Positions 11,798-42,394 are shown, counted from the first letter of the stretch. The stretch is DNA of 64,000 nucleotides from Akkermansia muciniphila (GCA_945900455.1 CAMDJH010000003.1:5006-69005); one strand, 5' to 3'. The notes: generated by a model not told the origin, from the letters alone. Program-made: numbers and translations.

Positions 11798-11799
11798 TA

Positions 11800-12030: not shown

Positions 12031-12089
12031 TCTCGACGGGCTAAGCTACCTCGAGTACGGTTCCGGGAAAATGCCATCAACCTTCTCAA

Positions 12090-12905: not shown

Positions 12906-12937
12906 CCTTTCCGCCTTACAAGCCCCTGAGCGGAGGA

Positions 12938-15967: not shown

Positions 15968-16091
15968 CCGCAGGAAATCGGAATCGCTTTTCTCCAACGG
16001 ATATCTTGGTTCGGAGTGAGCGACTGCGGTCGACAGGCGGCGGGCGGCGGGGCACTGCGGCGCCAACGTTCAGAGTGTCGCTTGAAGGTGT

Positions 16092-19000: not shown

Positions 19001-21623
19001 GATTGAAACGATGACGGGCGCCATCCCGGACCCGGGTGGTGGGATAGCTCGTTCCCTTTTCCGGTGCGTCGCCAAAGTCTAATCGGGCCGGGTCGGAAAT
19101 CTTGACTTCATAGTCCTCGATTTCACCCGCTTCTGTACTCGATCCGAAGGATTCCACCTTGCCCTCCTGGCTGAGTCGGAAGCGCGCGAAGGTTCGGCCC
19201 GGTTTTGCCGAGAGGGGAATCGGGAATTGCCAATCCTTCAATCCCGCAGGCTGCATCCCATCGATGACATGCTCATCGGCATCCAGCCAGTCTCCGTCGC
19301 CGTTAAAATCGATCCAGGCGTCGAGTTGTCCATTGCCGATGGAACTATTGAGGGTCACGCGCACCGTCACGAGCTCGCCCGGAACGAACGGGGTCAAAAA
19401 CTGGACACCATCCTCGTCGGTCCCGTCGCCGGTCGCATCCGCATTGGGTTGGCCGTCCGGTTCGGTGTCGATCGACTTTCCCAAGACAAACTGTGGATTC
19501 ACGCGCTGGCTGGCCCCGTTGTGTGCCAAGAGAGTTGGATACGGTTGATCCGGCGCATCGCCGAAATCGAACCGGACCGGCTCGGCAATGCTGACCTGGT
19601 AATCCTCGACTTCGCCCAACTGATCGCTCGGGCCGAAGAAATCAACCGGCCCCTTCTGGCTAAGCCGAAACCGGGCAAACGTAAAGCCCGGCTTGGCATC
19701 AAGCGGTACCACCACATCAAAATCCGTCGCGCCGGGGGAGACAAACGTATCGAGTATATGCTCACCGGGGCCCGACCACTTGCCGTCCGCGTCCCAGTCC
19801 ATCCACGCGTCCAGTTTGCCGGTACCAATCGAGCTCAGGAGGTTGACGCGAATCTTCATGGTCAAACCCGGGACCAGTGCTGTGAGGAACTGGACGCCAT
19901 CCTCGTCGCTCCCGTCCCCAGTGGCATCGGCATTCGGCTGCCCGTCCGCTTCGGCATCAACCTTTCCTCCCAGGAGAAATTTCTGACTGATGATCTGGCT
20001 GGCACCGTTGTCGCCCTTCAGCGTCGGATAGGGCCTATCCGGTGAATCCCCGTAATCCCGAGTTACGGGAGCCGCCGTAATGATCAATGGGTAATCCTCA
20101 ATCTCTCCCTCCTGGTCCGAAATCCCGGCAGGGTCACCCACTCCATCGCGACTCAACCGGAAGCGCGCGAAATTGGTGCCGAGTCTTGCGACGGTTGGAA
20201 TTGGGATGAGCAATGAGTTAGTGCCCTTGAGCAGATTAAACACGAACGATTCACCCGGTTCACCCCAGACACCATTCCCATCGAAATCGATGAAGATATC
20301 CAGAACGCCCCCGGGATTAGCGTGAACGGTGTCGGTTAGAACCACTTGAGCGACGGCATCGAGTCCGGGAATGAGAAGCCCCGCAAAAGTCACGCCATCC
20401 TCGTCCGCTCCATCACCGCTGGCGACGGCATTGGGCTGGCCATCCGGTTCGCCATCGACGGTCGCCCCCAAGCTATAACCCTTGAGCACACGCTGAGCCG
20501 CGCCGTTGCTATTGCGCAATGTCGGATACGGTTTATCCGGAGCATCTCCGAAATCAAAGATGGTGGGGGCGGGATTCACCGAGACATTGATGGTCTTGGT
20601 GACAACACGGACCCCGTCGTTGATGCGCAGGGTGATTTGGGTATCTCCTGCCTGACCGGCCGCGGGAATAATGGTCAGCGTGCGCTGGCCGGATCGACCT
20701 TCCAGGATCAGTCCGGCATTCGGCAGGAGCCGACGATCTCCACTGGCGACGGTAGCTTCCAGCTTATCAACAACCGTATCCACATCGGCAATCTGGAAAA
20801 AGATCGGTCCGCTCGAACTGTCCTGCTGAATTGTCTGGTCGGCAATATCATGGATCGTCGGAGGAAATGGACCTTCCGTGGTCAGATTGGCAAACTCGGC
20901 ACTCGTCAAATCGCCCACCGCTCTCAAACCGCGGCCGACCGCCAAGCCGACAAAAGGGCCTCCCTGGCCGGGTAATCCTCCCAACCAACCCTTGGCATTG
21001 CCATCACCCAGCAGGTCCCACTGGATTCCGTCGTGCGACAAATAGGCTCCAACAACATCGCCGTGACGTTCCAGACGCAACCAAGCCTCGGGGTACTGCG
21101 GACTCGGCCCGTCGGTGGGAGGCATCAAAATATCCTTCGCACCGGCCCTCAAACGCTCCTGCAACCGCACATCGTTGTCGCCGAACAAATTGGAAGGTGT
21201 GATCCCTTCCGGAGTCGCCCGAACATAGAACATTCGACTATCGTCACTCAGGGTTTCGCGCAACATCAAACCAGCCTTAGAGCTCGGCGAACTGGGCTCA
21301 AGTGATAGGATCTGCACTCGCCAATCGAAATCGCCTGGCGTATTGAGAAAATGAAACGTGAAGTTGTCCTGGCTCCCGCCGATGTCCACCCCGCCGCCTA
21401 CCACCAAGTACGAGTTCCTGGTATTGCCTAGTGAGATTTTGCCTTGAACCCCGAATTGACCGATCTGCGTGGATCCAAAATCCTGTGCGAATACGAAGTG
21501 GGGCGCGCTCAGAAGCAGGAGCCACGTGGCACATAAACCGCGGAGCACCGTAGCGTGAAGTGCAGTTCTGGTGGCTGATCGTGTAGGTCCGACCCGCGCT
21601 TGACACATTGCGACGAAGTTCAT
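16092..21623 (-). CDS. 1,843-aa secreted protein: ConA-like module, Ig-like region, 5 tandem GEVED modules, IgGFc-binding-like region, 2 HYR-like domains
   Basis: The ATG at 21623 is followed by a signal peptide '...LLLLSAPHFVFAQD'. Five ~165-aa repeats each begin 'GDAPD.PYPT' and end 'GE(I/V)ED(Y/H)' (about 18070-20575). 'GRDFWLTFPGNYAP...DLTGTLITSDKPIGVYGSHGCA...YLVEQLLPVNRW' is IgGFc-binding-like. 'TTPPHIECPT' marks HYR-like domains (about 16300-16825). Confidence 0.85.
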   Translation of the reverse strand: MNFVAMCQARVGPTRSATRTALHATVLRGLCATWLLLLSAPHFVFAQDFGSTQIGQFGVQGKISLGNTRNSYLVVGGGVDIGGSQDNFTFHFLNTPGDFDWRVQILSLEPSSPSSKAGLMLRETLSDDSRMFYVRATPEGITPSNLFGDNDVRLQERLRAGAKDILMPPTDGPSPQYPEAWLRLERHGDVVGAYLSHDGIQWDLLGDGNAKGWLGGLPGQGGPFVGLAVGRGLRAVGDLTSAEFANLTTEGPFPPTIHDIADQTIQQDSSSGPIFFQIADVDTVVDKLEATVASGDRRLLPNAGLILEGRSGQRTLTIIPAAGQAGDTQITLRINDGVRVVTKTINVSVNPAPTIFDFGDAPDKPYPTLRNSNGAAQRVLKGYSLGATVDGEPDGQPNAVASGDGADEDGVTFAGLLIPGLDAVAQVVLTDTVHANPGGVLDIFIDFDGNGVWGEPGESFVFNLLKGTNSLLIPIPTVARLGTNFARFRLSRDGVGDPAGISDQEGEIEDYPLIITAAPVTRDYGDSPDRPYPTLKGDNGASQIISQKFLLGGKVDAEADGQPNADATGDGSDEDGVQFLTALVPGLTMKIRVNLLSSIGTGKLDAWMDWDADGKWSGPGEHILDTFVSPGATDFDVVVPLDAKPGFTFARFRLSQKGPVDFFGPSDQLGEVEDYQVSIAEPVRFDFGDAPDQPYPTLLAHNGASQRVNPQFVLGKSIDTEPDGQPNADATGDGTDEDGVQFLTPFVPGELVTVRVTLNSSIGNGQLDAWIDFNGDGDWLDADEHVIDGMQPAGLKDWQFPIPLSAKPGRTFARFRLSQEGKVESFGSSTEAGEIEDYEVKISDPARLDFGDAPEKGTSYPTTRVRDGARHRFNPDVFLGSRVDVESDGQPDSGALGDDNQPNPALKDEDGVTFLSPIKAGATALVMVTASTRGRLDAWIDFDRNGSWAEPADLIFNNLLIGSGPNTLTFQVPAAAKEGSTFARFRFSLAGVPSFDGLALSGEVEDYPVKVTAEEPFDFGDAPEDPNVVGAGGGGYPTTLARNGARHRKVTGFYLGQRVDVEPDGQPTASSGGDDFNPSGLDDEDGVRFLGALAPGHFASVEVVASAPGRLDAWVDFAQNGNWTDGADQIFNGQSLVAGTNVLTFLVPGAAHAGSTYTRFRFSSKGGLSPTGLAEDGEVEDHRVRVLQERCDLSCTGRDFWLTFPGNYAPDPANPPAPQLCVLGNPGALVTVEIPGLGFNPTTPIPPSGLLHVLLPRAADLADLNDLVTNRGVHVTATDAISVHAMDQVQFSSDGYLALPTEVLGTSYIVVGYSNVFGAVPELNGSQFALVATEDDTTVNITPSAVVGSHDAGFSYSISLNTGDVYQLVETNGSPADLTGTLITSDKPIGVYGSHGCASIRSPTTFFCDYLVEQLLPVNRWTVEYYTHSLATRSNYTVRVVAAQSNTVASVNGILVNIPDRGGFIERSVTGPARILSSQPVMVIQYANSSDADDVENADPFMVTVPGRALYTSNHVFCTAAAGFLKHFINVVSPAAAVASLRLDGVLPAVVFQPIPGTPFVCASIPVTAGRHSLTASHPVGVIVYGWNKYESYAWPACLFFGDTTPPHIECPTNEIRRELNSDVASNVASCTTPIPDLRRQATVSDNCDLGREFQVQQNPPPGTLVGVGTWLIKLTVTDARGNMGMCVVPFVVIDLNPNGPFRLDCPTQIRTQCTTNNGAFVTYPVRLLKGCTVTSNEVLCLPPSGSFFPSGTNSVICRFPLANGQSIECAFPVIVECRRVLNVQSVLGPGVITLVWDESADIRLESSTSPLGPWEGLPDVHSGQPLPLGLETSKFYRLNSFP

Positions 21624-24600
21624 GAGGTCCTCCCGTTCGGTGGATTCAACCCTTCGAGCGGCGATGGGGTGAGCCTGAGTTGCTGTTGGGAATCAAACGA
21701 ATGCAAAGGCTGTGGTCCAACCGAAAGGACGGCGGAACTATCCCAGAGCACAGCGACGGTGGGCGGCGCTGCAATAGCGCGCGTCCAGGTCATGGGCGAA
21801 ATCAAATGGAGATCCGGCCGCAACACCAGCGGGGCCAGGTCACGGCCGGCGGCAGGCACCAAAAGGGTCGAGCCGAGCCCGACATGAACAACATGGATCA
21901 CTTCGAATCCGACGTAGGTCACTGGCTGGAAACCCACGCTTGAGAACAGCGTCGGTGTCTGCACCGTAACAGCGTTCTGGGCGACATAGATCAGCTCATC
22001 GGCATTTGCATCCCCTGCTTCGACGCGCAAGGCAGTGGTCATCGACGGCGTCACGCTGACTTGATCGTCAAACCCACTGGCACGAATCTGTTCAACATTC
22101 GCGGCCGGTAAAACCTGATTGCCGTTAGAATCCGACGCGGAAGTCGAATCACCCAGGGCAATGGTCATTCCGCTCGACGCGAAACTGAAGTCCAGGCGGT
22201 CGACACCTTCACCGGCCAACTCGATGAGAGTGTCGGTCCCCCACGCACCTCGGAACATATAGACATCATCGCCCTTTCGCCCCACTAGGATATCCGATCC
22301 ATCGCCGCCTTCCAAAATGTCGTCACGGTCCGTACCGACGAGGATGTCATTGCCTCCTTCGCCGCGGAACAGAACGTTGACAGTAGCGACACCAGCGGCT
22401 GTAAAGAAGTTGTTGTTCGGGCCACCGGAAATCTCGACGCGAACAAGGTTCGTAAAGGTATCCACTCCGGAAGGGGTAAACAATTGCGTGTTCGAGAGAA
22501 TGATATTGCCATCAATCACCTCGATCAAAACATCGTCCCCCGTGCCGCCATTGATGATATCACTACCGGCACCGCCCGTAATCTGATCATCTTTCGATCC
22601 GCCCTTGAGGGTGTCATCTCCATCACCGCCAACGAGAATCACAGGCCCGAGGACGAAGCCAGAGGCGAGTAGAATGTTCGCGCTTGGGCCACCAATCAGG
22701 GTCGCGCGTTCAATCGAGACAAGCGTGTCGGTTTCCGCACCGATCGTTAGCTGGGCATTGGTGACGCTCATATCGGCATCACGCGAGGCAAAGACTCGAT
22801 CCAGCCCGCTGGCGCCACCTCTCAGGGTATCATTTCCAAGCCCACCGTCGAGTGTCACGGGTCCCAGCGAATAATTACTGGCATCCAAAACATTCGGACC
22901 AGGACCACCCGTCAGCTCCGCCCGCTCGATTTCATCCAAGCTGTCGACTTCGGAGCCAATCCTCAGACTGGCATTCTTTAAAACAAAGTCTGCGTCCGCG
23001 TGTTCAACCAACGTGTCAACGCCGTCACCGCCAATCAGCTTATCCACACCAGGACCTCCAGTAAGGCGATTGTCGAGCACGTTGCCGATGAGTGTATCGT
23101 CGAGCGAAGCGCCTATGACGTTTTCGACGACATCCCCGGCTGCGAGGATCAGCGTGAGAGCGGGTCTAGGCGGAGCGGGGAATGTCGGCCCAGGGGCAGG
23201 CGCGACGTTGAAAGCCACCACTTGCGGACTGGCGAGCCCCAAGTCAACGACGACGCCCGTCGTGCCGGTCTCCAAGAAGTCGAGGGTATCCGTGCCATCC
23301 CCTGCTCTTTCTTCAATCCGATCGACACCATAGGTATCGCCATAGACATGGACATCATCGACGTCGAATCGGTAGGTGTCGTCGCCCGGTCCTCCGGCTA
23401 GGATGTTGTCGAGCTTGTTACCCCGGAGAACATCATCCCGAGATGTTCCCACGATATTTTCGAATCGGTTTCCCAGCCCGAGTGTCAGCGTGAGGTTCGG
23501 GTTCAACACCTGCGCGAGGCCGCGCGAAAGGTCCAACTGTACTCCGAGGGTTTGGGACGCGGAGAAGTCCAGCGTGTCATTCCCGCCCGTAAGCGGCTCG
23601 CTTAACGTGTCCAAACCCAACGCAGTGTCCGTGTCGAACAAATAGAGGTCATTTCCAGATCCGCCACTGATGAAATCATTGCCGGAGCCTCCCTCTAGAC
23701 GATCCTCTCCAATGCCACCGAAAAGAAAATCGTTCCCAGCATTGCCAAGGAGCATGTCATTGCCCGCACCCGCACTGAGAAGATCGCCCCCCGATCCACC
23801 GTCGAGCAGATTATCGAGGGAGTTTCCAATCAAGATGTCGGCGCCCAAACCACCAAACACATTTTCAAAAGCGAGATTTCCGAACACCGGCAAATAGATC
23901 AGCGAGGTGAGTGTGAGGTTTAGGTTGATGTTGACGTTTTGGTTGAGACTGTTCGAGAGATCAAGACTGACCGCATTGGTGCTGCCCCGGAAATCGAGAG
24001 TGTCGATACCGCCTTCCACATCGGCCGTTTCGACGAGAATGTCCGAACCTAACGCTGCGCTGGTGTTAAATATATAAGTGTCGTCGCCACGGCGCCCGCT
24101 CAGCGTGTCGTTGCCAGGTCCCCCCGTGAGATGATTGTCGAGGGAGTTGCCCAGGAGGATGTCGTTGCCGGCCCCACTGATCACATCTTCAATCCCATCG
24201 CAGGACAACAAGTGCAGCGAGAGCCGCCCAGGCACAACGATTTGCAGATGACCGAGAGTAAGATCAACAGTCAGACTTGCGGCAGTGCTGGAGAAATCCA
24301 ATGTATCCGTCCCGCCACCACCCACCGACTCGAGAATCCGATCCGATCCCAGAGCGAAGTCTGGGTTGAACGCATAGCGATCATTCCCGTCGCCACCGGC
24401 AAGGGTGTCATCTCCGTCGAATCCTTCCAGCCGATCATTCCCGGCATTCCCAACCAGCACATTGCCAGCGGCATTGCCATAGAGACGATCGTTCAAAGCA
24501 CTGCCGAGGACATCTTCGACCGCCGTGGCGGAAGTGAGCACCAAGTTCAAATTGGAATTGATAAATTGAGGGATCGCCAAGCCAAGCCTCACGGTCACAG

Positions 24601-27600
24601 CCCGCGTTGTGGTCAGAGAAAAATCAAGGGTGTCTTCACCTGAGAACGGTCCGCCAACTTCGATGACTGTGTCCGTTCCGAGCGGTGTGTCCGTATCGAA
24701 TATATAGGTATCGCCTCGGAGTCCTCCCGCGAGCGTATCATCACCTGCCCCGCCGATCAGGCGATCTCCGTCAAAACCCCCGGTCAACACGTCGTTCCCC
24801 TCTTCACCAAACAAGCTGGCTGGATAGAAGAAGAATCCAGCATTGATATGGTTGTCACCGAGCCCGCCCGCAAGGAGCGCCCCCTCAAAGCCCACCACGA
24901 TTTCGGTCTCGGCTCCCGCGAAATTGATTATAGCCAGGCTAAGACCCAGCGACGCGAGTGTGATATCGGTGTCCCGTTGCTCAACGATCTGGTCCGCATA
25001 CACAATCATGAACGGTGGCGCTAGGATTGGCGTGTTCTCACCACCGAAGAGTTGGTCACTGCCCAGACCTCCCGTGATCGCGTCGTTGCCGAAGTTCCCT
25101 TCGATTCGGTTGACGAGAGCATTCCCGACCAAGACATCGTCGCTTTGAGTGCCTTTTAGGTTCTCGATTAATTCAGGGGGCAAGGTGAGCGACAGATTCG
25201 GGTTCAATACCTGCGTATGGGTAAACGGAAGGAGAGTTCCGTCACTCCGGAAGATATTCTCACCCAATGTCAACGTGACACCGAAAGTGTCTGTCGATGA
25301 GAAATCCAAGGTATCTGTACCACCACCGGCCAGTTCAACGATCGTGTCAGAACCCAGTGTTGTGTCGGTGTCGAACGGATAGGTATCATCGCCAGCCGCG
25401 CCGACGAGCAAATCGTCGCCGGCACCGCCGATGAGCGTATCGTTATGGGTGGTGCCAAAGAGTTGATCATTACCCGCGGCTCCATCCAGGGTGACGGTTC
25501 CGTTAAATGCAGACGCGTCCAACGTGTTATCATGATCACCGCCCGTAAGATGCGCCTCGGAGATGCTACTCGTCGTATCGGTTTCTGCAACTCCACCAAA
25601 AGGTGTAATCTGCAGTGAAAGCGGAGTTAGTTTGAAGTCACCATCCCGCTGCTCGGTCAGAATGTTGGTCCCACCGCCGCCGGTGATGGTGTCAACACCG
25701 GGTCCTCCGGTGAAGGTGTTCGTCCCTGCACCTCCGATGAGTGTGTCGTTACCCGCGCCGCCATCGAGGCGCACCAACCCACCGAAACTGGACGCATCCA
25801 AGGAATTGTCGTTTGAATCGCCCGTAAGGCTGATTTCCTCAAAGGTCGGTGTGAAGGTATCCACCTCACCCGTATCCAGTAATTTCAAGATGCCGGTGGA
25901 AAGCATCCAGTTTCCTCCTCGGATCTCAGCCAGGACGTCATAGCCAGCCGCACCATCGAGCGAGTCATCCCCCACAAAACCCCAGAGCACGTTATCGCGG
26001 GCATTTCCCGTGAGCACGTCGTTCTTGTTGGTGCCGTATAGGATCTCGATGCCGCCAGCATCCGTCAACGTCAGGAGGAGGTTTGCGTTTACGGGTTGAG
26101 CCGCGGTGAGACTCAGGTTCACAGCGACCCCCACCGTCATGGAGGTTCGGAAATCCAACAAATCCACATCCTCGTCCGTCGCGGCCGAATCGATTTCGTT
26201 GACGATGTCGTGCCCGAGCGAACCATCGGCATTGAACAGGTAACTGTCGCTACCCTTGCCTCCGATAAGTTCGTCCTTGCCGTTCTTTCCCTCGAGCGTG
26301 TCGTTACCGTCGCCACCCGCAAGGCGGTTGTCCAGATCGTTGCCCGTCAGCACATCATCCCGTCGGCCGCCCGTCGCATTTTCGATGACGTTGATGGGGA
26401 AACGCACTTGCAGCACGGGGACGTCACTCACGCCGTCGAAACGAGAGGTGACCGCCTGGAGAACTGCGCTGCCCAGATCAATGCGTGCCGATCGGCCGCT
26501 TGTCGTGGACAGATCGATGGCATCGGTGCCGCCCAAGGGTGAGCCCATCTCGTCAATCACATTCACGCTGGCATCGTGATCTCCATCGAACACATAAGTG
26601 TCATTCTCACTTCCGCCGACCAATCGGTCATTGCCCGGTCCACCCTCCAATCGATCATTGCCGCCCTCGCCAAAAATGAGATCGAATTTGGCTTTATCAA
26701 GCTGACTCGTATCGCCGGGATCGCCGGCACCGCTGATGCCACCGGACAGGATATCGTTGCCCATTCCGCCGAGCAGGACGAATTTCTCCGCCGCGGCCGG
26801 GTCATAATATCCATAGTCGCCCAGGATGACGTCGTTTCCATCCGAACCCTGGATGACGTCATCGTCCGGGGCCGGATTATCGAAAATCAGCAATACCGCT
26901 TGGGGTAGGTTGCCGTGCACATCACCGCCGGTCGGGTTTCTTAGCTGCAAGAAGACGGTCTCGTACCCTTCGGCAATCGTGTCTTGAATCACCGGCACGA
27001 CGAAACTCTGACTGAGCTCATGGAGGTCGAACCGAGCGGTGCCCTTGACCGGAACATAATCCGCCGGCAGAGCGGGCGGCGTGTGAACGCCATCACTGGC
27101 GGTACCATTGACTGTATAATAATCCCCGACACCCTGCCGCCGGTTATCCGTGTGGAGGACCGTGATGGTGGCGGCTCCATCCGATTCGCGCACACTGTAG
27201 ATAACGTGATCAAAGGAGAGATTCCACGGTTCGGGTCCCGGTGCCGGCAAGGCCACCAAGCCGGCGTCCAAATCGATATTCAGACTGCCACCGGCGACTG
27301 GCAGCAGGCTCGTGAGCCCCGTTGCCGGGTCGGCGTCACTGTCTGCCGTATCGATGCCCACATCGCGGGCCGTCAGGCGGAACCCGGTCGGCGGCAGGAA
27401 CTGCACGCGATAACTGCAGGCGGCCAGTTTCTCAAACTTGTAGTTACCATGGGTGTCGGTCCATGCCGTGCCAACCAATGTCCAGTACTGGTCGTACAGA
27501 TTGACCTGCATATCCTTGACGCCAAGCTCGCCGGCATCCTGAGTGCCGTTGGAATTGACATCGTTCCAAACGCGATCGCCCAACGTGCCCGTGGGAGGCA

Positions 27601-36600: not shown

Positions 36601-39600
36601 CGGTCATGTTCACATCGACCAGATCGCGGTATACTTGGTCGAGGAAGGCGGTGGAAAAATTGAAGGTCGACTTTAGTTTAATCCCATTCCCGAATGGCAA
36701 CTCGATGTTCAGAGCCTCCTGATCTCCGAGACGCGACAGGAAACCGATGAAGCGCCGTAAATCACCCAGGACGGTGGTGCCATTGAACCCGAGGAACCGC
36801 ACGACGATATCCGCACCCACGTCTCCCATGGTGTCGATCCGGAAGCTACTCGCGTCGCGGATATCATCCCAGATCAGGCCGACGTGGAACGTGCCCAGGT
36901 TGAGGAATGGATCCTCCGAATCGAAACCGGCGGCCACGGTGAAATTTCCCACGAGCGTCAGATCGGGCGCGCCGGGATCGTCGTGCACCGTCACGGTGAT
37001 ATAGTCGGCCAGGCGGTCCCAGGCTTCATGTGGGCGCAGGCGACCGGGAGCTTCACCGCCGAGAAGCGGGTCGGCCGCCGTTTCCTGGAGGTCGATCTCG
37101 AAACTCACTCCGGGCGCCAAATGGACCATGCCGCCATCGAGTTTTACGGAAAGCAGACCAAATTGGCCCGCTCCTTCGATTTCTCCGGAGACCACGATGT
37201 CACGAATTACAATCTCCGAGGACGATAGATCGGTTCGCACATAGAATCCGCGTTCGTCGACTCCGAGATCCAGCTCCAGGTCCACCATGACGGATAGATC
37301 GATGTCCGCCTTTAGGCTGAGCGAGCCTCCCAGCAGATCGAGATCGATCATGGGGTGGGCGCTGATCGCCCGGTGAACCCCCACGTGGAACTGGTGGTCG
37401 CTGCCGGCGGTGGTGGCGGTCACATTGCCCGGGATATCATCTAATCCATCCAACAAACTGATCAGTTGCCCGTCGGTCGTAATCGTCACCCCGAGATCGG
37501 AGAACTGGAAACGGCTCGCACCGCCCTCGAGGATGCGTGCAAGTAAGGTTCCTATTTGATCCTCGGAAGATAGTCCCTCTTCCGTTTCTGTTTCCGGACC
37601 GTCGCCCGGGTCACTCAGAGGGGCTCCCAGGCGGAAAGGCACCCCGAAGACCGATCGGCCGAAGGAGCCCCCAAAGGGCCCCACGTCGCGTCCCAGCAAA
37701 CCCCGATCCTGCAACGGCCATGAGCTGTCAGAGAACAAACCCAAGCCCCGCCCGAAAGACCTCAATATATTTGCGAAACTCCCATGGTCTTCGACGGTCT
37801 CGGTGTTCAGCGCGGTCACGCGCTCAAAGCCAACGGTAAGCAACCGTACGGGAGGCAGCGCGGCATTCAAGACAGGCCCCAACGTCGCGCCCGTGAATTC
37901 AACCGTGTCGGCATTCGCGCCCCCATCGTATCGAATGCGCTGGGGGAAGGCGACGTCCCCGTTTTCGCTGTCAATGACCAGTCGATCGTCACCCCCATTC
38001 GAGAAGATCGAGACCGCCTGTACTTGCGACGCCGCCACCCTCAGCAACGTCACTCCACCCACAATGACTTCCAGATCCTCGGGCACCAATACGGAATCGC
38101 CATCGAGTTGCAGGCGAATGGTGTCGGCTCCGGGCCCCGTGTCGATTCGTAGCACCGGCTCTTCGAACGCACCGGCGGCGGCACCGGTCATTTTCCACGC
38201 GCCACGGCCCAGGGTTGCGGCGACCAGCACGTCATCCACGCGGTCGTAGTCGAGATCGGTCACCGTCACATGCGGCAAGCCATTGCCGAACCGCCGCCAA
38301 ACGATATCCGCCGGAGCGGTAGTGGCGAGCGTGGCCGGGTCCTCCACAGGGAGGCGATAGACCCCGTTGCCCGTGCCCGCCAGCACTACCAGCTTGCCAC
38401 CGCGTTCAATGACACTCACGGACTTGTTGCCCTGACTTAATCCAAGCAGGGTCCCGGTTATATCCGTGGCGATCGCGCCCGTGATGGTCTCGGCGGCACC
38501 CACCCCGGTCGTTGTGACCCGGATCATCCAGACATGGCTACCGTCGACCGCGAAGGCGGTGCGCCAATTGTGCGGATCGAGAACGAGATAGCTTACAGAG
38601 GAGACTCCCGCCAGCGCGACCGTGCCAGGAAACGTGCTGCCATCGTCCAGGCTCACGATGACATTATTGCCTCGCGCGACATAGATGACGTTTGGCCTGG
38701 TATCCAGGTTATCCCGACCGCCGTACGCCAGGGCAGACACCTTAGTGGGTAGCAACGCACCGGTGTTCAAAGGAGTGATCGTATCGCCGTGATCCATGCT
38801 CCGATACACCTGGGCTCGTCCCAGCAGAAGCCGGTCCGGCGCCACCTCATTCACGACCATGGGGACATATTCGAATCCAGAACCCCGGGCCAGAGCGGCG
38901 TCGGTGCCCCATCCATCCACGGTCCCGTTGGTAGCATCCAACCCACTGCGAAACAGCGCCGCACCTCCCGCGGTAACCAACGCTTGGCTCCGCAACAGAA
39001 TCGAATCCACCCGCTGCCAGTTGCTTCCGCCGGTATAAGCAGCGTTGCCCACTACGTTGGTGAGCGTGAATTGATTGGGGTTGACGACGGCCACCTTCCA
39101 GGTCCCGGTGGCGGCCGTGTTGCCTCCGCCTAAAAATGCCGGCGCGGTCGTATCCGCGTTGTTCCAGACCGTGACTCTGTCGTCGTTCACCAGTCCATGA
39201 TTATTTGATGTAATCGTGACGGGCACCCCATTTCCGGTCATGTTCGCGACAGGAATCGGGTGAATCACTACAAAGTCACCCCCCCCGCGGTAAGCTCCGT
39301 TGAACGCCAGTCCGTTCACGGTGAAATTATTGACATCCACCACAGTGACACCGAACGCTTGGCCGTTGATCCCGACCAAACCCACCACGCTTGAAAACTG
39401 GGCAAAATCGGTGTTCGCCAAGCCGTGTGCCACCGAGTTCACCCGCACCGCACCCGCCACATTGGTGATATTGGTGATCGTGTGACTGACCGGCCGAATC
39501 TCGTTATTGAGGTTATCGAACGTTCGCAGGGATAAGAATCCCAGGTTGTTCGACATGATATACCGCAGTGAATTACCCCCGGCGTAATCCACCGCCACAA

Positions 39601-42394
39601 AATTGCCGTCACCGCCGGTCAGGCTAGTCCAAACCAAGCCTCCCGGCGTGAGTTGGCTGATCAGGCCATTGTCCTGGGTTCCCGCAAAGATCGTATCGGT
39701 AAATCGATCATAGGCGGCCGACCGTGCCAACTCGGTGATGCTGAGGCCGCTTCCAATCCATTGCCAACCGGGGCTGAGGTTCCCAATCCGGGGATTCGCC
39801 GACCGATATAATCCCCCGTCGGACCCGACGATCAAGTCGGTGCCAGCGCTATTAAAGCGAATCGTCCGTACGTCACCGTGTGGCCCGGTCGTGTATGGGT
39901 CGGCAGCCGCAGCGTTCGTAGTGGTCACCTGGGTCCAACCGGACTGGATCGAACCGTCGCCATTGGTGTCCTCAAGGGGATCGAGAACTCCGTTTAGATT
40001 TCGATCTTCCGTATCCCACCGAAAGATCGCGGCGGTATACGGCGCAGTGCTGTTGATCGCACCGGCCACGAACAGCGTGCTCGGATTGGTCGGATCCGTT
40101 ACGATCGCCGAATGGATGTCCCCCTGGCCGGTAGGGTTGGCGATCGGTGGGGCTGCACCCACCGAGGTCCAGATCCCGCCGATGTTGGTGGACTTGAAAA
40201 CCCCTGCCAACTGGTTGTCGGGACCGACAATGGAGGCATAAACCGGGTTCGAACCACTCGCAACGGCCGTGGCACCGATCGCCAGCAAAATTCGGTTTGA
40301 GACCTTGATTCCCTCGCCCACCTCGTCCGTAACGGTGTCTTGATCGTCATCGGTCATGTTACTATCGAGCGGAAGAACAATCCCGCTCGTAATACGGGTC
40401 CAATGAATGTTGGCTACGGTTGCCTCAGTTCCGTTGCTCGTGACATAGACCCCCTTCTGAAGGGCTGGAATCTTGGAATTGTCCGTGCGTTGGAACGGTC
40501 CCGACAGGGAGACATACCACCGCCCGGGTGCGCCCGGGTCTTCGACAATGTCATTCACGGTTCCCTCCGGCAGTGGATGCACTCCTCCGAGAGCAGAGAT
40601 TCGTACCCAGGTGCCGTCGACGCCCCGACTGGTGCTCCGGTAGAGGCCGCCACGCCCCGGGGTTGCGCCCGAGGCGGGAGTCACTTCAAACGTCGACGCA
40701 TAGACCACATCCTTGGTGGCTACGTTACGCGAAGGAACGATCGCGGTGATCCGCAGGCCGGAGAACTCGCCACGGCTCGTAGCTTGCCATGTCGCGCCGC
40801 CATCCAATGAACGGAAAAGACCGGCATTGATTCCCGTCTGAGCGCTGCTGGTGAAGGACCCCGTGCCCGCATAGAGAACCAATTGATTGTCTGCCGTGAC
40901 TCCCGTTACAGGCGTCCCGTCCACCGCAAATGGACTCATCGCCAAGGCACCGATTCCCAGCGTTGGGAAACGGTCGGTCACGGGACCACCGGTGGCGGTA
41001 ACCAGCAGAGACCACGTCGGGTTTACGGTATTGAAGTCGGTGCTCTTCCAGATGCCGCCATTCACACTCCCGAGAAACGCGATGTTCGGCTTGGCCGGGT
41101 GAACGGCCAGGGCTTGAACGGCGCCGTCGGTGGGATTGGCGTTCGCTGGCGGAGCGTTCGAAGGCAGCAATTCATTCTGATTATTAATGATGCTGTTCGG
41201 ACCTTGCGACTGCCAGGTGGCGGGATTGAAGTAGACGTACGGTGTCTGCGGAAGATAACGGAGGAGCAGATCGCGCCCATCATTCGAAAGATCGACGACG
41301 AAGGCATGGCCAGCCGGCCTGGCGTTCAAGAACACCCCAGGGACAGAATCCAGGCTGAACTTGGTTCGGTCAAAACCCGTGATACCAGCGGTAGTATGGA
41401 CAATTCGCCAGATATAGGTCTGGGAATTATCGAAGTTCGCAGCGACCCCAAGCGTTCCCGGGGACGACAACGTATTGAGATGGATCGCAAAGGGACTGAC
41501 CGCAGTGGCCTGGATGTCGAGGCTTCCCGTGACGTTGATGATGTCCCAATCCGTGCCTTCAAGACCCGTCGCACTCTTCATGTCCCAGGCATACTCTTCG
41601 GTGCTGCTCCAAATCTCGTTCGAGGCGATCGCCTCGATCCCAGGCCCGTGAGGAATGGAAGAGACCGTCTCCAGGGAAGCATGACCTCGACGCGAACTTT
41701 CCAACAGCACGTCCAAAGCAGATGGCGGCCCGTTGGCGCTCCGCAATGTTTCCAACAACTGAGTGGTGATGGAACTTCCCTCCGGTTTGGCGGGCACGAC
41801 CGAATCGAATGCGGCCGGCAGCAGTGGCGAAACTTCGGGTCCCGGCGACGCGAACTCCGCTGCGGAAGTTTCAACGGTCGTCGGCGCACATCCTTTTGGC
41901 TCGGGTTGATTCGGCGCTCCCGCGACTGGCGACGGGACGGAAAACGGGATGCTAGGAGCCAAATCCTCGAGGGAATCACAATGCCCGAGAAGATCCTTCG
42001 CGGAGCGCGAAGCCTCGGCACTCTCGATGGCCGCTTGTTCGCTCCGTTGCAGTGCCGTCGCCGCTTCCGCGAGCGGATGCTGGACGTGCTCTTCGACAAC
42101 GGCGACCTGGCTGTTGGATTGACTGTGGGCGGCCGCAGGCGCGAGCGAACCCAACCCTTCGCCGGAAAGCAAAATCCGAGGCTCAAGAGCCTCCAAATCA
42201 AATGGAGCGTCTTTACGCACAGAGAGCAAAAAGCAACCGAACTGAAAATCAGCCGCCTCGGAAGACAGAGTTCCCGCTTTAACCCGCGCGCCGCGTCGCG
42301 TCGGAACCACCCTCTCCAACAATCCAATTCCCAGGTGCGGGTGAAACTTTTTCGGCGGTTCATATTTAGAACCATAGCCATACGCAAAAATCAA
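21620..42394 (-). CDS. 6,924-aa giant secreted protein: LEPR-XLL-type N-terminus, BNR/Asp-box beta-propeller, unassigned ~2,100-aa core, RTX blocks, SdrD-B-like and Calx-beta arrays
   Basis: One uninterrupted ORF of 20,775 nt. 'LEALEPRILLS' lies at 42164-42196. Asp-box motifs include 'GGIWKSTD' and 'SLDGGATWQ'. GGxGxD nonapeptides are numerous (e.g. 'GGSGNDQLYGGDGPDTLYGGDGADVLIGD'). Calx-beta-like units read 'LAIDNPSLVEGDTG...'. An SdrD-B-like unit reads 'IKGLAWFDVNDEHGIRND...'. The 5' end is uncertain: the ORF opens at TTG 42394, there is no ATG in the first ~270 codons, and alternative GTG starts lie at 42310 and 42220. Confidence 0.85.
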   Translation of the reverse strand: MIFAYGYGSKYEPPKKFHPHLGIGLLERVVPTRRGARVKAGTLSSEAADFQFGCFLLSVRKDAPFDLEALEPRILLSGEGLGSLAPAAAHSQSNSQVAVVEEHVQHPLAEAATALQRSEQAAIESAEASRSAKDLLGHCDSLEDLAPSIPFSVPSPVAGAPNQPEPKGCAPTTVETSAAEFASPGPEVSPLLPAAFDSVVPAKPEGSSITTQLLETLRSANGPPSALDVLLESSRRGHASLETVSSIPHGPGIEAIASNEIWSSTEEYAWDMKSATGLEGTDWDIINVTGSLDIQATAVSPFAIHLNTLSSPGTLGVAANFDNSQTYIWRIVHTTAGITGFDRTKFSLDSVPGVFLNARPAGHAFVVDLSNDGRDLLLRYLPQTPYVYFNPATWQSQGPNSIINNQNELLPSNAPPANANPTDGAVQALAVHPAKPNIAFLGSVNGGIWKSTDFNTVNPTWSLLVTATGGPVTDRFPTLGIGALAMSPFAVDGTPVTGVTADNQLVLYAGTGSFTSSAQTGINAGLFRSLDGGATWQATSRGEFSGLRITAIVPSRNVATKDVVYASTFEVTPASGATPGRGGLYRSTSRGVDGTWVRISALGGVHPLPEGTVNDIVEDPGAPGRWYVSLSGPFQRTDNSKIPALQKGVYVTSNGTEATVANIHWTRITSGIVLPLDSNMTDDDQDTVTDEVGEGIKVSNRILLAIGATAVASGSNPVYASIVGPDNQLAGVFKSTNIGGIWTSVGAAPPIANPTGQGDIHSAIVTDPTNPSTLFVAGAINSTAPYTAAIFRWDTEDRNLNGVLDPLEDTNGDGSIQSGWTQVTTTNAAAADPYTTGPHGDVRTIRFNSAGTDLIVGSDGGLYRSANPRIGNLSPGWQWIGSGLSITELARSAAYDRFTDTIFAGTQDNGLISQLTPGGLVWTSLTGGDGNFVAVDYAGGNSLRYIMSNNLGFLSLRTFDNLNNEIRPVSHTITNITNVAGAVRVNSVAHGLANTDFAQFSSVVGLVGINGQAFGVTVVDVNNFTVNGLAFNGAYRGGGDFVVIHPIPVANMTGNGVPVTITSNNHGLVNDDRVTVWNNADTTAPAFLGGGNTAATGTWKVAVVNPNQFTLTNVVGNAAYTGGSNWQRVDSILLRSQALVTAGGAALFRSGLDATNGTVDGWGTDAALARGSGFEYVPMVVNEVAPDRLLLGRAQVYRSMDHGDTITPLNTGALLPTKVSALAYGGRDNLDTRPNVIYVARGNNVIVSLDDGSTFPGTVALAGVSSVSYLVLDPHNWRTAFAVDGSHVWMIRVTTTGVGAAETITGAIATDITGTLLGLSQGNKSVSVIERGGKLVVLAGTGNGVYRLPVEDPATLATTAPADIVWRRFGNGLPHVTVTDLDYDRVDDVLVAATLGRGAWKMTGAAAGAFEEPVLRIDTGPGADTIRLQLDGDSVLVPEDLEVIVGGVTLLRVAASQVQAVSIFSNGGDDRLVIDSENGDVAFPQRIRYDGGANADTVEFTGATLGPVLNAALPPVRLLTVGFERVTALNTETVEDHGSFANILRSFGRGLGLFSDSSWPLQDRGLLGRDVGPFGGSFGRSVFGVPFRLGAPLSDPGDGPETETEEGLSSEDQIGTLLARILEGGASRFQFSDLGVTITTDGQLISLLDGLDDIPGNVTATTAGSDHQFHVGVHRAISAHPMIDLDLLGGSLSLKADIDLSVMVDLELDLGVDERGFYVRTDLSSSEIVIRDIVVSGEIEGAGQFGLLSVKLDGGMVHLAPGVSFEIDLQETAADPLLGGEAPGRLRPHEAWDRLADYITVTVHDDPGAPDLTLVGNFTVAAGFDSEDPFLNLGTFHVGLIWDDIRDASSFRIDTMGDVGADIVVRFLGFNGTTVLGDLRRFIGFLSRLGDQEALNIELPFGNGIKLKSTFNFSTAFLDQVYRDLVDVNMTGNLGASPTPAVLRGEFSAPLKFSLLINDVATPDIILPAVNGSRHSIADLAAEINSALAAFPGNPAQKVQATVMRGNLAFRLLDGFSLGIAGTDANNPIFTKLGFRSGQAGVEHLKLPTLQSLFAKLEDLLDPDDEGPLHFDIHLDYDQPNRRLTFRVEFSYHFATSTSFTYNTNIGLGDLANFGASGDLGLDGQVSLAATLGFDFNERAAPRLVTSIVVPPPSSGRITADSTFSIKLSDSDRFRFTLPHSALNTQLTDLRDDLNNLLVLAPASYRFHGHLIREVVHFVVSGNALVLEAINEDTNRNGVLDPLEDTLVPNGRLDVVPFGVTSIEIEALSNDPMVTEIGFTGGVGRAPILGIFLDNASFGGMLTVSASNLAATARFAIFGVDIGHDGMGHGIGSAMGNVSVLLNVRNPDGGNRIDLTRILGDLSHIGSYVQLDPSFHADLDVNLPNLKVTPNIPGLLTGTPAITIKIPDFRHLQYNPNPYEVGVNDQGVFITYPNFGALMNFRCLGFTDFAITLASLSDQLRQINTFDFLNKPLPLINKSIGDILDFASQIAETIQAVGRGEGEQLDQLEHTIEELLHLSDNNLEFSVEHSVVAIAAGNISTRASATFNPRGDNNALSFQADNNGDTLSEVLFVDDATLAAHANVATAEYDAPHKALKIRYNATYTTAATIRDAMASAHGASLPFTAQLDGAADPGNNGSGAVQQTALKMVLAYTPTYANNLPFQFSLGDLAAFLPDGSPAHSLLQGVTDLVTVSGSGDLAVTAKADLKIVFGLDVSSPCHWEPFLYDTDYDGPNTGTGIVLSAALRGTNLNFRASLGAVGAYIKNGTATLDRDGDPATTGPGQDAEFAVKLEDSNHDGRHYLRGGETFFDGHNIGFNLNVGASAVLPVYAPIESIPLGSTSDGNLDGFPDNDLVVIIPSLPGLFVPATLHDNLGTNEAILRFPFGQNDLKFTGPAAGKSVKFIEVANPGDSPSATLDGSGNLQVRVRPAKTTAAQVIALSLPPGWAVVANPTGDSGPGNGKVYSNVTILTPDLGSLLHGFDACTAIRNTPVLLDGLDALLGTIQDALTNKVLNRNLPLVGSKLMEVGGFIGQFRNGLLADIRRELAKAGDPIGLVKKAIFDVLGKPGLDLIVKPDGTPITEFNDVDIVCNGNAIDFKIRIKKSLALVDTTANPIQFDVGVPGLGLSVDGNVKIQLGFDLKLYFGVSASDGFYFRTEDPEELKVDFMITIPGLHARGNLFFLQLDVSDETNGVDAQGHERHSSSFGGFFSVNLKDPIGSGNKLTFADMRSPGFSLDRFIEARLGAEAGVHLDLVVSFGGDAQFPRLLVEFDLEWMWTLGGHSDGDLHIGFHNVQLDVGSFIGQFIAPILEQIKKVTGPIQPLVDVLTAPIPILSDLAGEPINMVRLAEIYGELTPGTRKFIEAIGKIITLVNETNVASNGSILIPLGGLNMQRNPFGQIQRMAGETNPQAAMPSTQTSHAGARNFLQKLEDLGFKFPFLSIGEVFKLFTGKPVTLVEYHMPVLEFSARFSQSIPLYPPLYVVFGGEVGAKIDLTFGYDTYGIAKFISSPEKNFLDILDGFFVKDVNDQGIDVPEITLHGGIFAGAALSIGPIELGVTGGVFVVIEFNLNDPDHDGKVRVSEIIANAKQDIRCIFDIHGELYVELAAYLKINLLFFSLDFEWTFARITILTFDINCPQPVLADVDGHGPLVPVGLADPGLLTLHMGERAADRIVGDTADGSETFIVKHLSGAGTNADPETVEVSFNGIKQTYNGVKRIVVKAGKGDDVLDVRGVLAPVDAYGGDGNDTLYAGQSDGSMFFGGGGDDTLVAEEAKDMFLGATNEFHGGPGDDLLTGGARNDRLSGDDGRDKLYGNAGMDELRGGSGNDQLYGGDGPDTLYGGDGADVLIGDDPATTGEADDELYGEEGDDHLEGGPGSDKLVGGNGDDTLDGGMGDDVLLGDNGTIIDLTHVTGISGSGNDILAGGPGGDNLFAAGGNDKVFGGTLLVSGVLTNVEPDGIDFIDGGDGADIIFADDAHGGQATTFPGSTIKGLAWFDVNDEHGIRNDVRDPTERGVAAVTVELHKADTTLIGTSATGPDGTFRFVGLEGGDYYLKFQTPAGLAVVAVDIGSDDTIDNDADATGKTGSIHVDAGDSTDTWAVGYRGTTALLAIDNPSLVEGDTGTQNLMFTVTLTNPLSQTVTVCYKSADGTANRILDYGSVDSTLTFKPGEITKTVLVAIHGDGIDEGDVEQFNVTLCDPNIAEIHPAITVALDPAHTIGVGTIIDDDDAPVININNAVQIPGFGPVTEVTDLTFEVTLSRPSKFSITVDYRSEQVVGSDGVLVFDAATQGVDYITPLPGSVTFLPNQTSLTLVVQPKPDLLDEYDEQMSMRVAINSGTPSNRAVLGDGEAIGRIADDDATPFVRITGPALPVIEGHAGKKPVGLTLTLIDGVTNAPIASGRPVVVSWNTSPGTATLSAPNPLDADAEYAFANVVFKPTEMSKPITVNINGDTRFEPFDPVQGVWEYFFVNLLTATNGQLDSDDSNLNHAVIQIQDDEVPDPGPWYVQFSNVVYQGTEGDDLEITLVRAGGSSNPIGVYWTTAGTATPSADYTGAIWEHGAMPPRHWVYFESGETAKTFTVHLQQDKDIEPTETILLSLLNPTGGPVRGAVPNAVLRILDAQPLPKLSVGDVTVSEGVASGLITFEIVAELPDDVRLAPGVTVSVDWSVLNGTAHAGSDFVAPAPGTVTFSAADFLPVPDGDSTPQRASKTVSISLVNDVTAELTENLLLHLSNAVGGEITRYEGKGTIEDNDRQLITGFVFYDANGNGFFDSSTEYRLKNISVAVQDREGSVLGVAPTNGSGQWTANVLLGSILVTADEADSDLPTDASVSTGNNGGAFQVTPSVTTVDDIGFEVKPEPDIPEESIGNGGAFNNDTVYGGPGNDRIDGGAGEDWLFGGHWLGPGCATSGTPYDGSILQQSAVDGAHKYINPASLPPTGTLGDRVWNDVNSNGTQDAGELGVKDMQVNLYDQYWTLVGTAWTDTHGNYKFEKLAACSYRVQFLPPTGFRLTARDVGIDTADSDADPATGLTSLLPVAGGSLNIDLDAGLVALPAPGPEPWNLSFDHVIYSVRESDGAATITVLHTDNRRQGVGDYYTVNGTASDGVHTPPALPADYVPVKGTARFDLHELSQSFVVPVIQDTIAEGYETVFLQLRNPTGGDVHGNLPQAVLLIFDNPAPDDDVIQGSDGNDVILGDYGYYDPAAAEKFVLLGGMGNDILSGGISGAGDPGDTSQLDKAKFDLIFGEGGNDRLEGGPGNDRLVGGSENDTYVFDGDHDASVNVIDEMGSPLGGTDAIDLSTTSGRSARIDLGSAVLQAVTSRFDGVSDVPVLQVRFPINVIENATGGRRDDVLTGNDLDNRLAGGDGNDTLEGKNGKDELIGGKGSDSYLFNADGSLGHDIVNEIDSAATDEDVDLLDFRTSMTVGVAVNLSLTAAQPVNANLLLTLTDAGGIEILYGTNKNDVLTGNARDNVLWGFVGDDSLDGAAGYDVLAEIRGGNWMLSTGILKLLDTGEVDTFTPTFEEISLTGDSNDNSLDASSFGGLVRLDGGAGNDTLIGGAGTNTFTGGPGVDTITGGGGTNILTEQRDGDFKLTPLSLQITPFGGVAETDTTSSISEAHLTGGDHDNTLDASAFNGTVTLDGAAGNDQLFGTTHNDTLIGGAGDDLLVGAAGDDTYPFDTDTTLGSDTIVELAGGGTDTLDFSSTDTFGVTLTLGENIFRSDGTLLPFTHTQVLNPNLSLTLPPELIENLKGTQSDDVLVGNALVNRIEGNFGNDAITGGLGSDQLFGGENTPILAPPFMIVYADQIVEQRDTDITLASLGLSLAIINFAGAETEIVVGFEGALLAGGLGDNHINAGFFFYPASLFGEEGNDVLTGGFDGDRLIGGAGDDTLAGGLRGDTYIFDTDTPLGTDTVIEVGGPFSGEDTLDFSLTTTRAVTVRLGLAIPQFINSNLNLVLTSATAVEDVLGSALNDRLYGNAAGNVLVGNAGNDRLEGFDGDDTLAGGDGNDRYAFNPDFALGSDRILESVGGGGTDTLDFSSTAASLTVDLTLGHLQIVVPGRLSLHLLSCDGIEDVISGAGNDILLGNSLDNHLTGGPGNDTLSGRRGDDTYIFNTSAALGSDILVETADVEGGIDTLDFRGSTNAVSLDLSNSLNQNVNINLNLTLTSLIYLPVFGNLAFENVFGGLGADILIGNSLDNLLDGGSGGDLLSAGAGNDMLLGNAGNDFLFGGIGEDRLEGGSGNDFISGGSGNDLYLFDTDTALGLDTLSEPLTGGNDTLDFSASQTLGVQLDLSRGLAQVLNPNLTLTLGLGNRFENIVGTSRDDVLRGNKLDNILAGGPGDDTYRFDVDDVHVYGDTYGVDRIEERAGDGTDTLDFLETGTTGVVVDLGLASPQVVAFNVAPAPGPTFPAPPRPALTLILAAGDVVENVIGASLDDTLIGNVLDNRLTGGPGVDKLIGGDGVDTLVEHADADFVLKNASLRIGSEVDSLDEIERAELTGGPGPNVLDASNYSLGPVTLDGGLGNDTLRGGASGLDRVFASRDADMSVTNAQLTIGAETDTLVSIERATLIGGPSANILLASGFVLGPVILVGGDGDDTLKGGSKDDQITGGAGSDIINGGTGDDVLIEVIDGNIILSNTQLFTPSGVDTFTNLVRVEISGGPNNNFFTAAGVATVNVLFRGEGGNDILVGTDRDDILEGGDGSDILVGRKGDDVYMFRGAWGTDTLIELAGEGVDRLDFSFASSGMTIALGDSTSASDSNGNQVLPAANVEQIRASGFDDQVSVTPSMTTALRVEAGDANADELIYVAQNAVTVQTPTLFSSVGFQPVTYVGFEVIHVVHVGLGSTLLVPAAGRDLAPLVLRPDLHLISPMTWTRAIAAPPTVAVLWDSSAVLSVGPQPLHSFDSQQQLRLTPSPLEGLNPPNGRTS
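21628..21634 (-). promoter_or_regulatory. Shine-Dalgarno-like GGGAGGA for the 1,843-aa gene, embedded in the 3' end of the giant gene
   Basis: The minus strand reads ...GGGAGGAcctcATGA. The SD lies 4 nt before the ATG (21621-21623), and that ATG overlaps the giant gene's TGA stop (21620-22). Confidence 0.5.

Follow-up and report, generated by a model that had tools for sequence, protein, structure and literature searches.

The DNA analysed here, referred to as the window, is a stretch of 64,000 nucleotides (GCA_945900455.1, CAMDJH010000003.1:5006-69005) listed under Akkermansia muciniphila, and the subject of this work is one very large gene on its minus strand, called the giant throughout. 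Read from N- to C-terminus, its product presents a LEPR-XLL motif without a Sec signal, a propeller 'head', an array of repeat units spanning ~2,000 residues and a C-terminal half of ~3,200 residues made of Ca2+-binding modules. The ORF listing places a single open reading frame (ORF) of 6,924 codons plus stop, with a TTG start, at 21620..42394 on the minus strand, and upon translation the sole stop codon is the terminal one, a TGA. With the local base composition, the probability of a stop is 0.035 per random codon, such that 6,924 open codons would arise by chance with a probability of ~3e-109, and 8-33 stops per 500 codons interrupt each of the other frames on that strand. The GC content at the three codon positions (0.62/0.45/0.67) is flat along the ORF and similar to that of neighbouring genes. 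No direct DNA repeats of 40 nt or longer were found inside the ORF, and its sole tandem repeat is one 59-nt stretch; the repeats of the protein must therefore be well diverged at the DNA level, which makes collapse or expansion during assembly unlikely. An earlier account of this locus, the sequence-only reading, had allowed for a chimeric assembly within the ORF. The lack of DNA repeats of that length, together with collinear single ORFs in other metagenome-assembled genomes (MAGs), speaks against this, and the giant ORF is a real, intact, conserved single gene, neither a chimera nor a collapsed assembly.

Relatives were sought by scanning GTDB species representatives with residues 2960-3665 of the giant (numbered from the maximal ORF), which gave five loci, and an exhaustive profile search added three proteins, P0019, P0021 and P0036. 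The closest, P0019 (6,484 aa), is 87% identical almost without gaps over residues 59-6443. In a Verrucomicrobia MAG, locus L002 holds a single ORF of 6,397 aa within an open frame of 6,408 codons, collinear with residues 249-6773 at 36-46% identity, and locus L001 (protein P0020) stays open for at least 5,276 codons until it exits the contig end, collinear with residues 65-5521 at 42-51% identity. P0021 and P0036, likewise collinear single ORFs, are 6,442 and 6,198 aa long, respectively. Given collinear orthologues in other genomes, the giant is, as far as sequence comparison can tell, a single conserved unit whose module order is old, and 'mosaic' is a fair term for its composition and not for a recent chimera. 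The sequence-only reading had described a chimera of module types usually found in different surface proteins; the mosaic composition stands, and the novelty was overstated, since orthologues that are 45-87% identical keep the whole order, which is also the usual one for a large class of LEPR-XLL/RTX giants among bacteria of the Planctomycetes-Verrucomicrobia-Chlamydiae (PVC) group. In four further homologous loci (L006, at 4957-21480, and L007, L008 and L009) the giants appear as two to three consecutive, slightly overlapping ORFs, which could reflect frameshift errors, pseudogenisation or genuine splitting; the copy in the window is intact.

The same relatives bear on where translation begins. 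The called starts of P0019 (MRKEAQFDLEVLEPRILLS), of L002 (a GTG giving SRNNQFEIEALEPRVLLS) and of L001/P0020 (MRRVRVRNRRPSNLFELEALEPKVLLS) all align to a GTG at position 42220 of the window (VRKDAPFDLEALEPRILLS), which is residue 59 of the maximal ORF, and for this reason the true start is most likely this GTG, with a predicted coding sequence at 21620..42220 (minus strand) and a product of 6,866 aa. The earlier statement of an uninterrupted 20,775-nt ORF encoding 6,924 aa is thus exact for the open frame and needs correction for the likely start, which is not 42394. Starting at 42220 leaves a gap of 208 nt to the divergent gene that begins at 42429. A scan of the giant's 5' intergenic region for sigma-70 promoters found nothing.

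What occupies the middle of the protein? Residues ~1400-3660 match no Pfam, NCBIfam or PDB sequence, even at E <= 5, and a single-sequence phmmer search of residues 1420-3660 against PDB sequences returned nothing. Self-comparison of the whole protein by BLAST gave the identity match only, and tiled BLAST detected repeats in the RTX and Calx regions only; the central repeats surfaced only when hidden Markov models (HMMs) were compared with hhalign. Beyond a linker with no significant family (residues 1400-1600, 37595..38197), hhalign resolves three cryptic repeats, U1 (residues 1600-2060, 36215..37597), U2 (residues 2060-2560, 34715..36217) and U3 (residues 2560-2965, 33500..34717), followed by a larger module M (residues 2960-3665, 31400..33517), all on the minus strand. 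U1 aligns with U2 at 97.3% (E 1.7e-11), with the first half of M at 96.9% (E 1.5e-10) and with U3 at 82.4% (E 1e-5); U3 aligns with the first half of M at 94.7% (E 6.3e-8) and with U2 at 90.1% (E 1.6e-6); and a sub-HMM, Mbeta1, matches residues 1654-1776 within U1. Module M itself comprises two homologous halves (94%, E 1.4e-7), each with a helical segment followed by long beta-hairpins and each carrying the pattern DGFY...EL.V...FLQ...F.VDL.DP..DGK....E. Because U1-U3 and the two halves of M are related in this manner, the central region is, on the strength of profile alignment, an array in which one beta-rich unit recurs at least five times in strongly diverged form. The ~2,100 aa that had been set aside as unassignable are consequently not blank, and they are still without a curated family. 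U2 has a canonical EF-hand-like loop at residue 2233 and M has one at residue 3569 (DPDHDGKVRVSE); those in U3 are partial.

A profile of module M (alignment A1, residues 2960-3665) was run exhaustively against 1.84 billion cluster representatives at 50% identity and matched 4,668 of them at E <= 1e-3 and 2,497 at E <= 1e-30. These numbers overturn the idea of a rare family, which had come from a word-indexed search that listed 17 and 9 relatives. Most of the matching proteins are 2,000-8,000 aa long and cover the full ~700-residue profile; they carry names such as 'Ca2+-binding RTX toxin-like protein', 'calcium-binding protein' and 'hypothetical protein' and come from Phycisphaeraceae, Isosphaeraceae, Verrucomicrobiaceae and similar taxa. 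When 30 members were scanned singly, no Pfam family was found over M, and only RTX (18/30) and weak EF-hand matches appeared. The company that M keeps is also recurrent: at least three RTX nonapeptides lie no more than 350 aa after M in 82% of the 174 M-bearing proteins collected, and 72 of the 118 apparently complete ones start with a LEPR-like motif. The repeat unit and the ~700-residue module M are absent from Pfam-A (2025 copy), NCBIfam release 20 and the PDB, and are in this sense new to curated knowledge. On one metagenome contig of 2,083 nt (P0165), the first 442 residues of M run into a TolC/OEP-like segment (PF02321, 38 bits). If that fusion were real, it would link the M family to outer-membrane channel proteins; such a short contig may be chimeric, and it was not used as evidence of a type I secretion link.

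N-terminal to this array lies the propeller, for which curated families give little: Pfam yields nothing at E <= 0.01, with BNR scanned alone reaching 13.8 bits (E 0.06) versus a cutoff of 27, and a single-sequence phmmer search of residues 1-1419 against PDB sequences returned nothing. Only a profile built from eight sequences (A4; residues 395-965 of the window protein and seven homologues) succeeded against the PDB, matching GH74 xyloglucanases (E 1.3e-15), an entry named 'glycosyl hydrolase, BNR repeat' (8e-11) and sialidases (5.5e-6), as well as dispase autolysis-inducing protein, Ycf48 and sortilin; the entries matched include 2cn3, 6mgl, 3b7f, 3sil and 5znn. Each of these matches is a short, non-collinear, blade-level stretch of 11-21 bits. 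Approximately eight Asp-box-like blade motifs can be recognised, those of the type GG[ILV][YW][KR]S.D.G.TW standing at residues 446, 529, 582, 735, 860, 1195 and 1248, and the aligned region of the homologues gives sub-threshold matches to Sortilin-Vps10 (24-32 bits versus 33) and BNR_2. The call of a BNR/Asp-box propeller made from the sequence alone is supported by profile A4, with the threshold of the Pfam BNR family not reached, and we treat the assignment as supported at the level of sequence profiles.

The propeller is predicted to fall into two parts, residues 395-960 (39515..41212, minus strand), to which profile A4 and most of the blade motifs apply, and residues 1165-1400 (38195..38902, minus strand), which hold the motifs at 1195 and 1248, match no family alone and are collinear with the orthologues. 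Between them is an insertion (39005..39502, minus strand) with an E1_FCCH-like small beta-barrel at residues 988-1039, scoring 34.3 bits to PF16190 (cutoff 29.5) when the segment is scanned alone, and a second copy by eye at ~1045-1130. The insertion weakly resembles the barrel inserted in phage endosialidase propellers (E 0.02), and the pair (residues ~965-1130) is absent from L001 and L002, where the alignment has a gap. The propellers of two homologues, P0003 and P0050, carry a different insertion.

The extreme N-terminus is marked by the LEPR-XLL motif that the sequence-only reading had spotted there, and it is borne out by NF012209 at 25 bits versus a cutoff of 17 (residues 67-87, with the core LEALEPRILLS; 42134..42196, minus strand). 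Measured from the GTG at 42220, the motif begins ~9 residues into the 6,866-aa protein. From residue 59 on, including the stretch after the motif, no Sec-type hydrophobic core was found: the highest 10-residue Kyte-Doolittle mean is 1.16, whereas the two neighbouring genes with signal peptides reach 2.13 and 2.67, and the highest 19-residue hydropathy of the giant is 1.9. The protein is very acidic (880 D+E versus 372 K+R) and has only 13 cysteines. Apart from LEPR-XLL, the N-terminus has no match among Pfam and NCBIfam families; an acidic Pro/Ala-rich linker (residues 88-250) precedes a beta-rich region (residues ~250-395, 41210..41647, minus strand) that has no Pfam/NCBIfam match either and is conserved in L001, L002 and P0021. 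The DNA that encodes E-A-L-E-P (42178-42193, minus strand) is a hairpin with a perfect 6-bp stem (GAGGCT-CTTG-AGCCTC) ahead of GGAUUUUGCU and resembles a terminator. L001, L002 and L006 do not conserve this hairpin, which was rejected as a feature and is probably a by-product of codon choice.

Directly after M, the C-terminal half opens with a block of RTX nonapeptides (residues ~3709-3985, 30440..31270; all features of this half are on the minus strand), where PF00353 reaches E 1.3e-28 and an RTX block placed at about 30465-31195 is confirmed. It is followed by a first SdrD_B unit (residues 3991-4100, 30095..30424; PF17210, 68.2 bits), five tandem Calx-beta units (residues 4101-4752, 28139..30094), a degenerate SdrD_B-like unit (residues 4752-4860, 27815..28141), a second SdrD_B unit (residues 4937-5046, 27257..27586; PF17210, 108.4 bits) and a sixth Calx-beta unit (residues 5049-5175, 26870..27250). 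Three SdrD-B units had been proposed, of which the outer two pass the threshold and the middle one does not, scoring 21.8 bits versus a cutoff of 29.7 over the first half of the model only. For the six proposed Calx-beta units, PF03160 is the best or only family in every case, and three of the six exceed its cutoff of 27 (56.7 and 28.5 bits in the tandem set, 52.0 bits for the sixth unit), with the remaining tandem units below it at 16.1, 19.1 and 24.1 bits.

The modular RTX region (residues 5176-6745, 22160..26869), which the sequence-only reading had put at 22250-26880, is borne out, with PF00353 matches down to E 2e-43 and serralysin C-terminal-like matches. It consists of beta-roll blocks spaced by two kinds of linker, with nine 'DTLDF'-type modules. 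Over the whole protein, five tiles match PF00353 with E-values of 1e-28 to 2e-43, and ~51 strict GGxGxDxUx nonapeptides can be counted. The window copy (22160-23100, residues ~6443-6815) is ~380 aa longer here than P0019, its 87% identical relative, which indicates that the number of RTX modules varies among close relatives. The last ~190 residues have no family match, in agreement with the non-repeat C-terminus described earlier, and within them residues ~6750-6845 (21860..22147; ...GFQPVTYVGFEVIHVVHV) form a conserved domain, alignable to the C-terminal ends of P0019, P0021 and P0036, that is a candidate for the secretion-signal region. A low-complexity tail of ~80 aa (21623..21859) is conserved only in P0019. 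Taken together, seven of the eight items of the module map first drawn for this protein were tested and hold with refinements.

The gene immediately downstream (16092..21623, minus strand) is co-oriented with the giant, and its ATG and the TGA stop of the giant overlap as ATGA; the product of 1,843 aa has five GEVED domains, IgGFc_binding and HYR in addition to a Sec signal peptide. At L006 the LEPR-started homologue (in three ORFs) is followed by a 2,208-aa GEVED/IgGFc_binding/HYR protein that is 47% identical to the partner in the window. Since that protein likewise lies 3' of the giant homologue, the pairing is conserved, and giant and partner look like a conserved two-gene unit. On the other side, a divergent gene (42429-49547, plus strand) encodes an exported protein of 2,372 aa with a classical signal peptide, six lamin-tail (LTD) domains, a CotH kinase-like domain and PA14, such that three consecutive very large exported proteins extend over 33 kb. 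Five genes at 49592-54748 have prepilin-type N-terminal methylation motifs (N_methyl), two of them with weak DUF1559 matches, as is typical of PVC genomes, and the window also carries a DUF1579 gene, a PVC hallmark alongside the N_methyl/DUF1559 genes. An IS630-type transposase gene (DDE_3 plus HTH) is located at 10706-11743 (minus strand), ~4.3 kb from the end of the block of surface-protein genes. At the start of the window, a phosphoenolpyruvate carboxykinase gene encodes a product 79-80% identical to proteins named from Verrucomicrobiota MAGs. By such sequence affinities, the giant belongs to an uncultured lake bacterium of the Verrucomicrobiota.

A fundamental question is what a protein of this architecture would do. 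We propose, with a probability of roughly 60%, that the giant is a Ca2+-dependent extracellular or cell-surface fibre of an adhesin-like or glycan-engaging kind, which is the best explanation of the features described. The components of this proposal differ in strength. That the protein is a secreted or surface protein dependent on Ca2+ is very probable from its domain content; the odds of an adhesive or glycan-engaging role, suggested by the propeller, stand about even; and export via type I secretion, argued by analogy, falls a little short of even odds and is put forward tentatively. An acidic, cysteine-poor composition without a Sec signal is typical of type I substrates. In the proposed mechanism, the giant would be exported unfolded with its C-terminus first, most likely through a type I system as in RTX proteins, and would fold outside the cell upon binding of Ca2+ by its RTX, Calx-beta and EF-hand-like sites. 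Once folded, the protein could form a stiff, elongated stalk and hold out the propeller towards polysaccharide or surfaces. The LEPR-XLL end may stay at the envelope or close to it and serve as a tag for sorting or retention. Co-expression with the Sec-exported GEVED/IgGFc-binding/HYR protein encoded directly downstream would be expected.

Several observations weigh against the proposed Ca2+-dependent fibre. Genes for ABC, membrane-fusion and TolC-type components are absent from the 64-kb window, and no type I genes lie within 10 kb of the homologues L007-L009 or adjoin L006; type I export loses support thereby without being excluded, since such genes can be unlinked. A C-terminal secretion signal is not recognisable by sequence, type I secretion signals having no sequence consensus. 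No LapG-type site was found, the motif [TP]AA[GV] being absent from the first 400 residues, and family scans of the tiles found no Ig-like extender repeats. The propeller is N-terminal, the opposite of characterised type I adhesins, in which binding domains are near the C-terminus. In the literature searched, LEPR-XLL is scarcely mentioned and a role for the motif is not established there. Finally, it is from domain families that adhesion, Ca2+ binding and a surface location are all deduced.

One alternative would place degradation ahead of adhesion, with the propeller acting as a GH74-like glycanase or sialidase tethered on a Ca2+-stiffened stalk. Verrucomicrobiota are degraders of polysaccharides, the best solved relatives of the propeller profile are the GH74 xyloglucanases (1.3e-15) and sialidases, and homologue P0003 is named 'exo-alpha-sialidase' by its source. 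However, blade-level matches of 11-21 bits that are not collinear indicate Asp-box blades and not a conserved active site, and no glycoside-hydrolase family rises above its curated threshold, so a tethered enzyme is unlikely.

A second alternative dispenses with a specific ligand and regards the giant as a structural protein of the envelope or matrix, such as an S-layer-like coat, a holdfast or a biofilm scaffold. Its size, acidity and density of Ca2+ sites would fit, as would the occurrence of three very large exported proteins in succession, and structural roles have been proposed for giant genes of PVC bacteria (PMC5177795). Against this, no S-layer or anchoring domain was detected and the conserved propeller head suggests specific recognition, which renders a purely structural role improbable.

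Two further alternatives concern the fold of module M. Two AlphaFold2 (AF2) models of M, computed from multiple sequence alignments of 12 and 30 sequences, have a predicted local distance difference test (pLDDT) score of 69.7 and 73.9 and a predicted template-modelling (pTM) score of 0.41 and 0.46, respectively, and both models show helical segments and, after them, up-and-down hairpins that are 15-19 residues long. In Foldseek searches, outer-membrane barrels and pore formers come first in the PDB and maturation proteins of ssRNA phages come first in BFVD, all with a template-modelling (TM) score <= 0.15 and, for the PDB matches, a root-mean-square deviation (rmsd) >20 A. With TM scores so low, none of these matches was accepted as a fold assignment, and M is read, from the models, as a long antiparallel beta-meander without a known fold match, which is not evidence of a membrane barrel.

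One could go further and suppose that U1-U3 and M represent an undescribed Ca2+-binding beta-hairpin fold which, with the LEPR-XLL tag and the RTX block, constitutes an export-and-anchoring system specific to PVC bacteria, M serving as a barrel-like beta-meander that inserts into the membrane or anchors in the envelope and not as a passive spacer; we consider this quite improbable. Very unlikely is an RTX protein active on membranes as a toxin or contact weapon, in which the long amphipathic beta-hairpins of the central units would form a barrel or pore in the membrane of a target or in an outer membrane, whether as a giant RTX/MARTX-type cytolysin or as an anchor in the style of inverse autotransporters. 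Such a protein is suggested by the 15-19-residue hairpins in both models, by the first ranks of Foldseek, namely MtrB (E 4.8e-4, probability 0.87), FhaC, BtuB, BamA/TamA, gasdermin, the membrane attack complex (MAC) and perforin-2, and by the N-terminal position of M in some members of the family. Yet the TM and rmsd values, with pTM at 0.41-0.46, mean that there is no real fold match, and N-terminal placement of M may merely reflect truncated gene calls. Moreover, Pfam and NCBIfam scans of the tiles found no hydrophobic pore-forming or acylation region, effector or cysteine-protease domain, the 19-residue hydropathy peaks at 1.9, and the source organism is a free-living lake bacterium. Last, an assembly artefact or pseudogene read-through, in which genes were fused by mis-assembly or a dead gene is read, could draw on the homologous loci split into two to three consecutive ORFs in some MAGs (L006; L007-L009), but it has a negligible probability and is largely refuted by collinear single ORFs in at least four independent assemblies (one 87% identical and near gap-free over 6,385 residues), by the uniform coding signal and by the absence of long DNA repeats.

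Why would one such protein matter? Giant genes are well documented in these bacteria: over 90% of the giant genes of bacteria code for surface proteins or polyketide synthases/nonribosomal peptide synthetases (PKS/NRPS), Planctomycetes are rich in them, and among the planctomycete genomes examined, genes longer than 5 kb occur in 29/29 and genes longer than 20 kb in 15/29 (PMC5177795). Proteins of at least 10,000 aa are likewise frequent in PVC phyla (bioRxiv 10.1101/2023.11.21.568195). In this respect the giant itself adds another very large surface protein of the RTX type to a group of bacteria known to abound in them. The broader interest lies in module M, a ~700-residue module derived from an older beta-rich unit of ~150-200 residues and present in thousands of very large environmental proteins. 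If M were curated, large 'blank' stretches in many PVC giants could be annotated as repeats, and M is also a target for structural work. In addition, an N-terminal LEPR-XLL motif regularly combined with C-terminal RTX, and with neither a Sec signal nor linked type I genes, frames a testable question of how the largest surface proteins of Verrucomicrobiota and Planctomycetota are exported and retained.

Comparison with known systems places the giant as follows. With the LEPR-XLL giants of Planctomycetota and Verrucomicrobiota (NF012209, 'LEPR-8K') it shares the motif above cutoff, a very large size and the same superphylum, with the qualification that this family rests on a 24-residue motif alone and says nothing on the other 6,800 residues. 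The likeness of the propeller to GH74 xyloglucanases, sialidases and sortilin/VPS10 lies in the repeated blades of the form G-G-[ILV]-[YWF]-[KR]-S-x-D-x-G-x-T-W; the giant differs from them in staying below the curated Pfam thresholds and in the inserted pair of FCCH-like barrels. MARTX proteins and RTX cytolysins are also very large and place long non-RTX repeats N-terminal to RTX, whereas no A/B repeats and no cysteine-protease, effector, acylation or hydrophobic domains appear in the Pfam/NCBIfam tiles of the giant, and its matches to the NCBIfam RTX_toxin model are confined to the nonapeptide region and far below the cutoff of 1000.

The closest parallel in logic is provided by the adhesins LapA of Pseudomonas, SiiE of Salmonella, MpIBP of Marinomonas and FrhA of Vibrio, which, like the giant, are several thousand residues long, acidic and poor in cysteine, lack a Sec signal and end in C-terminal RTX, and which also combine a long, repetitive, Ca2+-stiffened extender with sugar-binding-type domains. 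The extender of the LapA/SiiE/MpIBP type is built from bacterial Ig-like repeats, whereas that of the giant would consist of the novel beta-hairpin units (U1-U3/M) together with Calx-beta and SdrD_B; Big, cadherin and Ig families were found in none of its Pfam/NCBIfam tiles. Unlike these adhesins, the giant has an N-terminal propeller, no LapG-type TAAG site and no adjoining genes for ABC, membrane-fusion and outer-membrane proteins, and RTX makes up approximately one-quarter of its length as opposed to a short terminal block. Because Ig-like extenders, a LapG-type site and linked transporters are what it lacks, the giant shares the logic of an adhesin but not the defining features of the LapA/SiiE/MpIBP type, and it belongs with the giant LEPR-XLL/RTX exoproteins of PVC bacteria.

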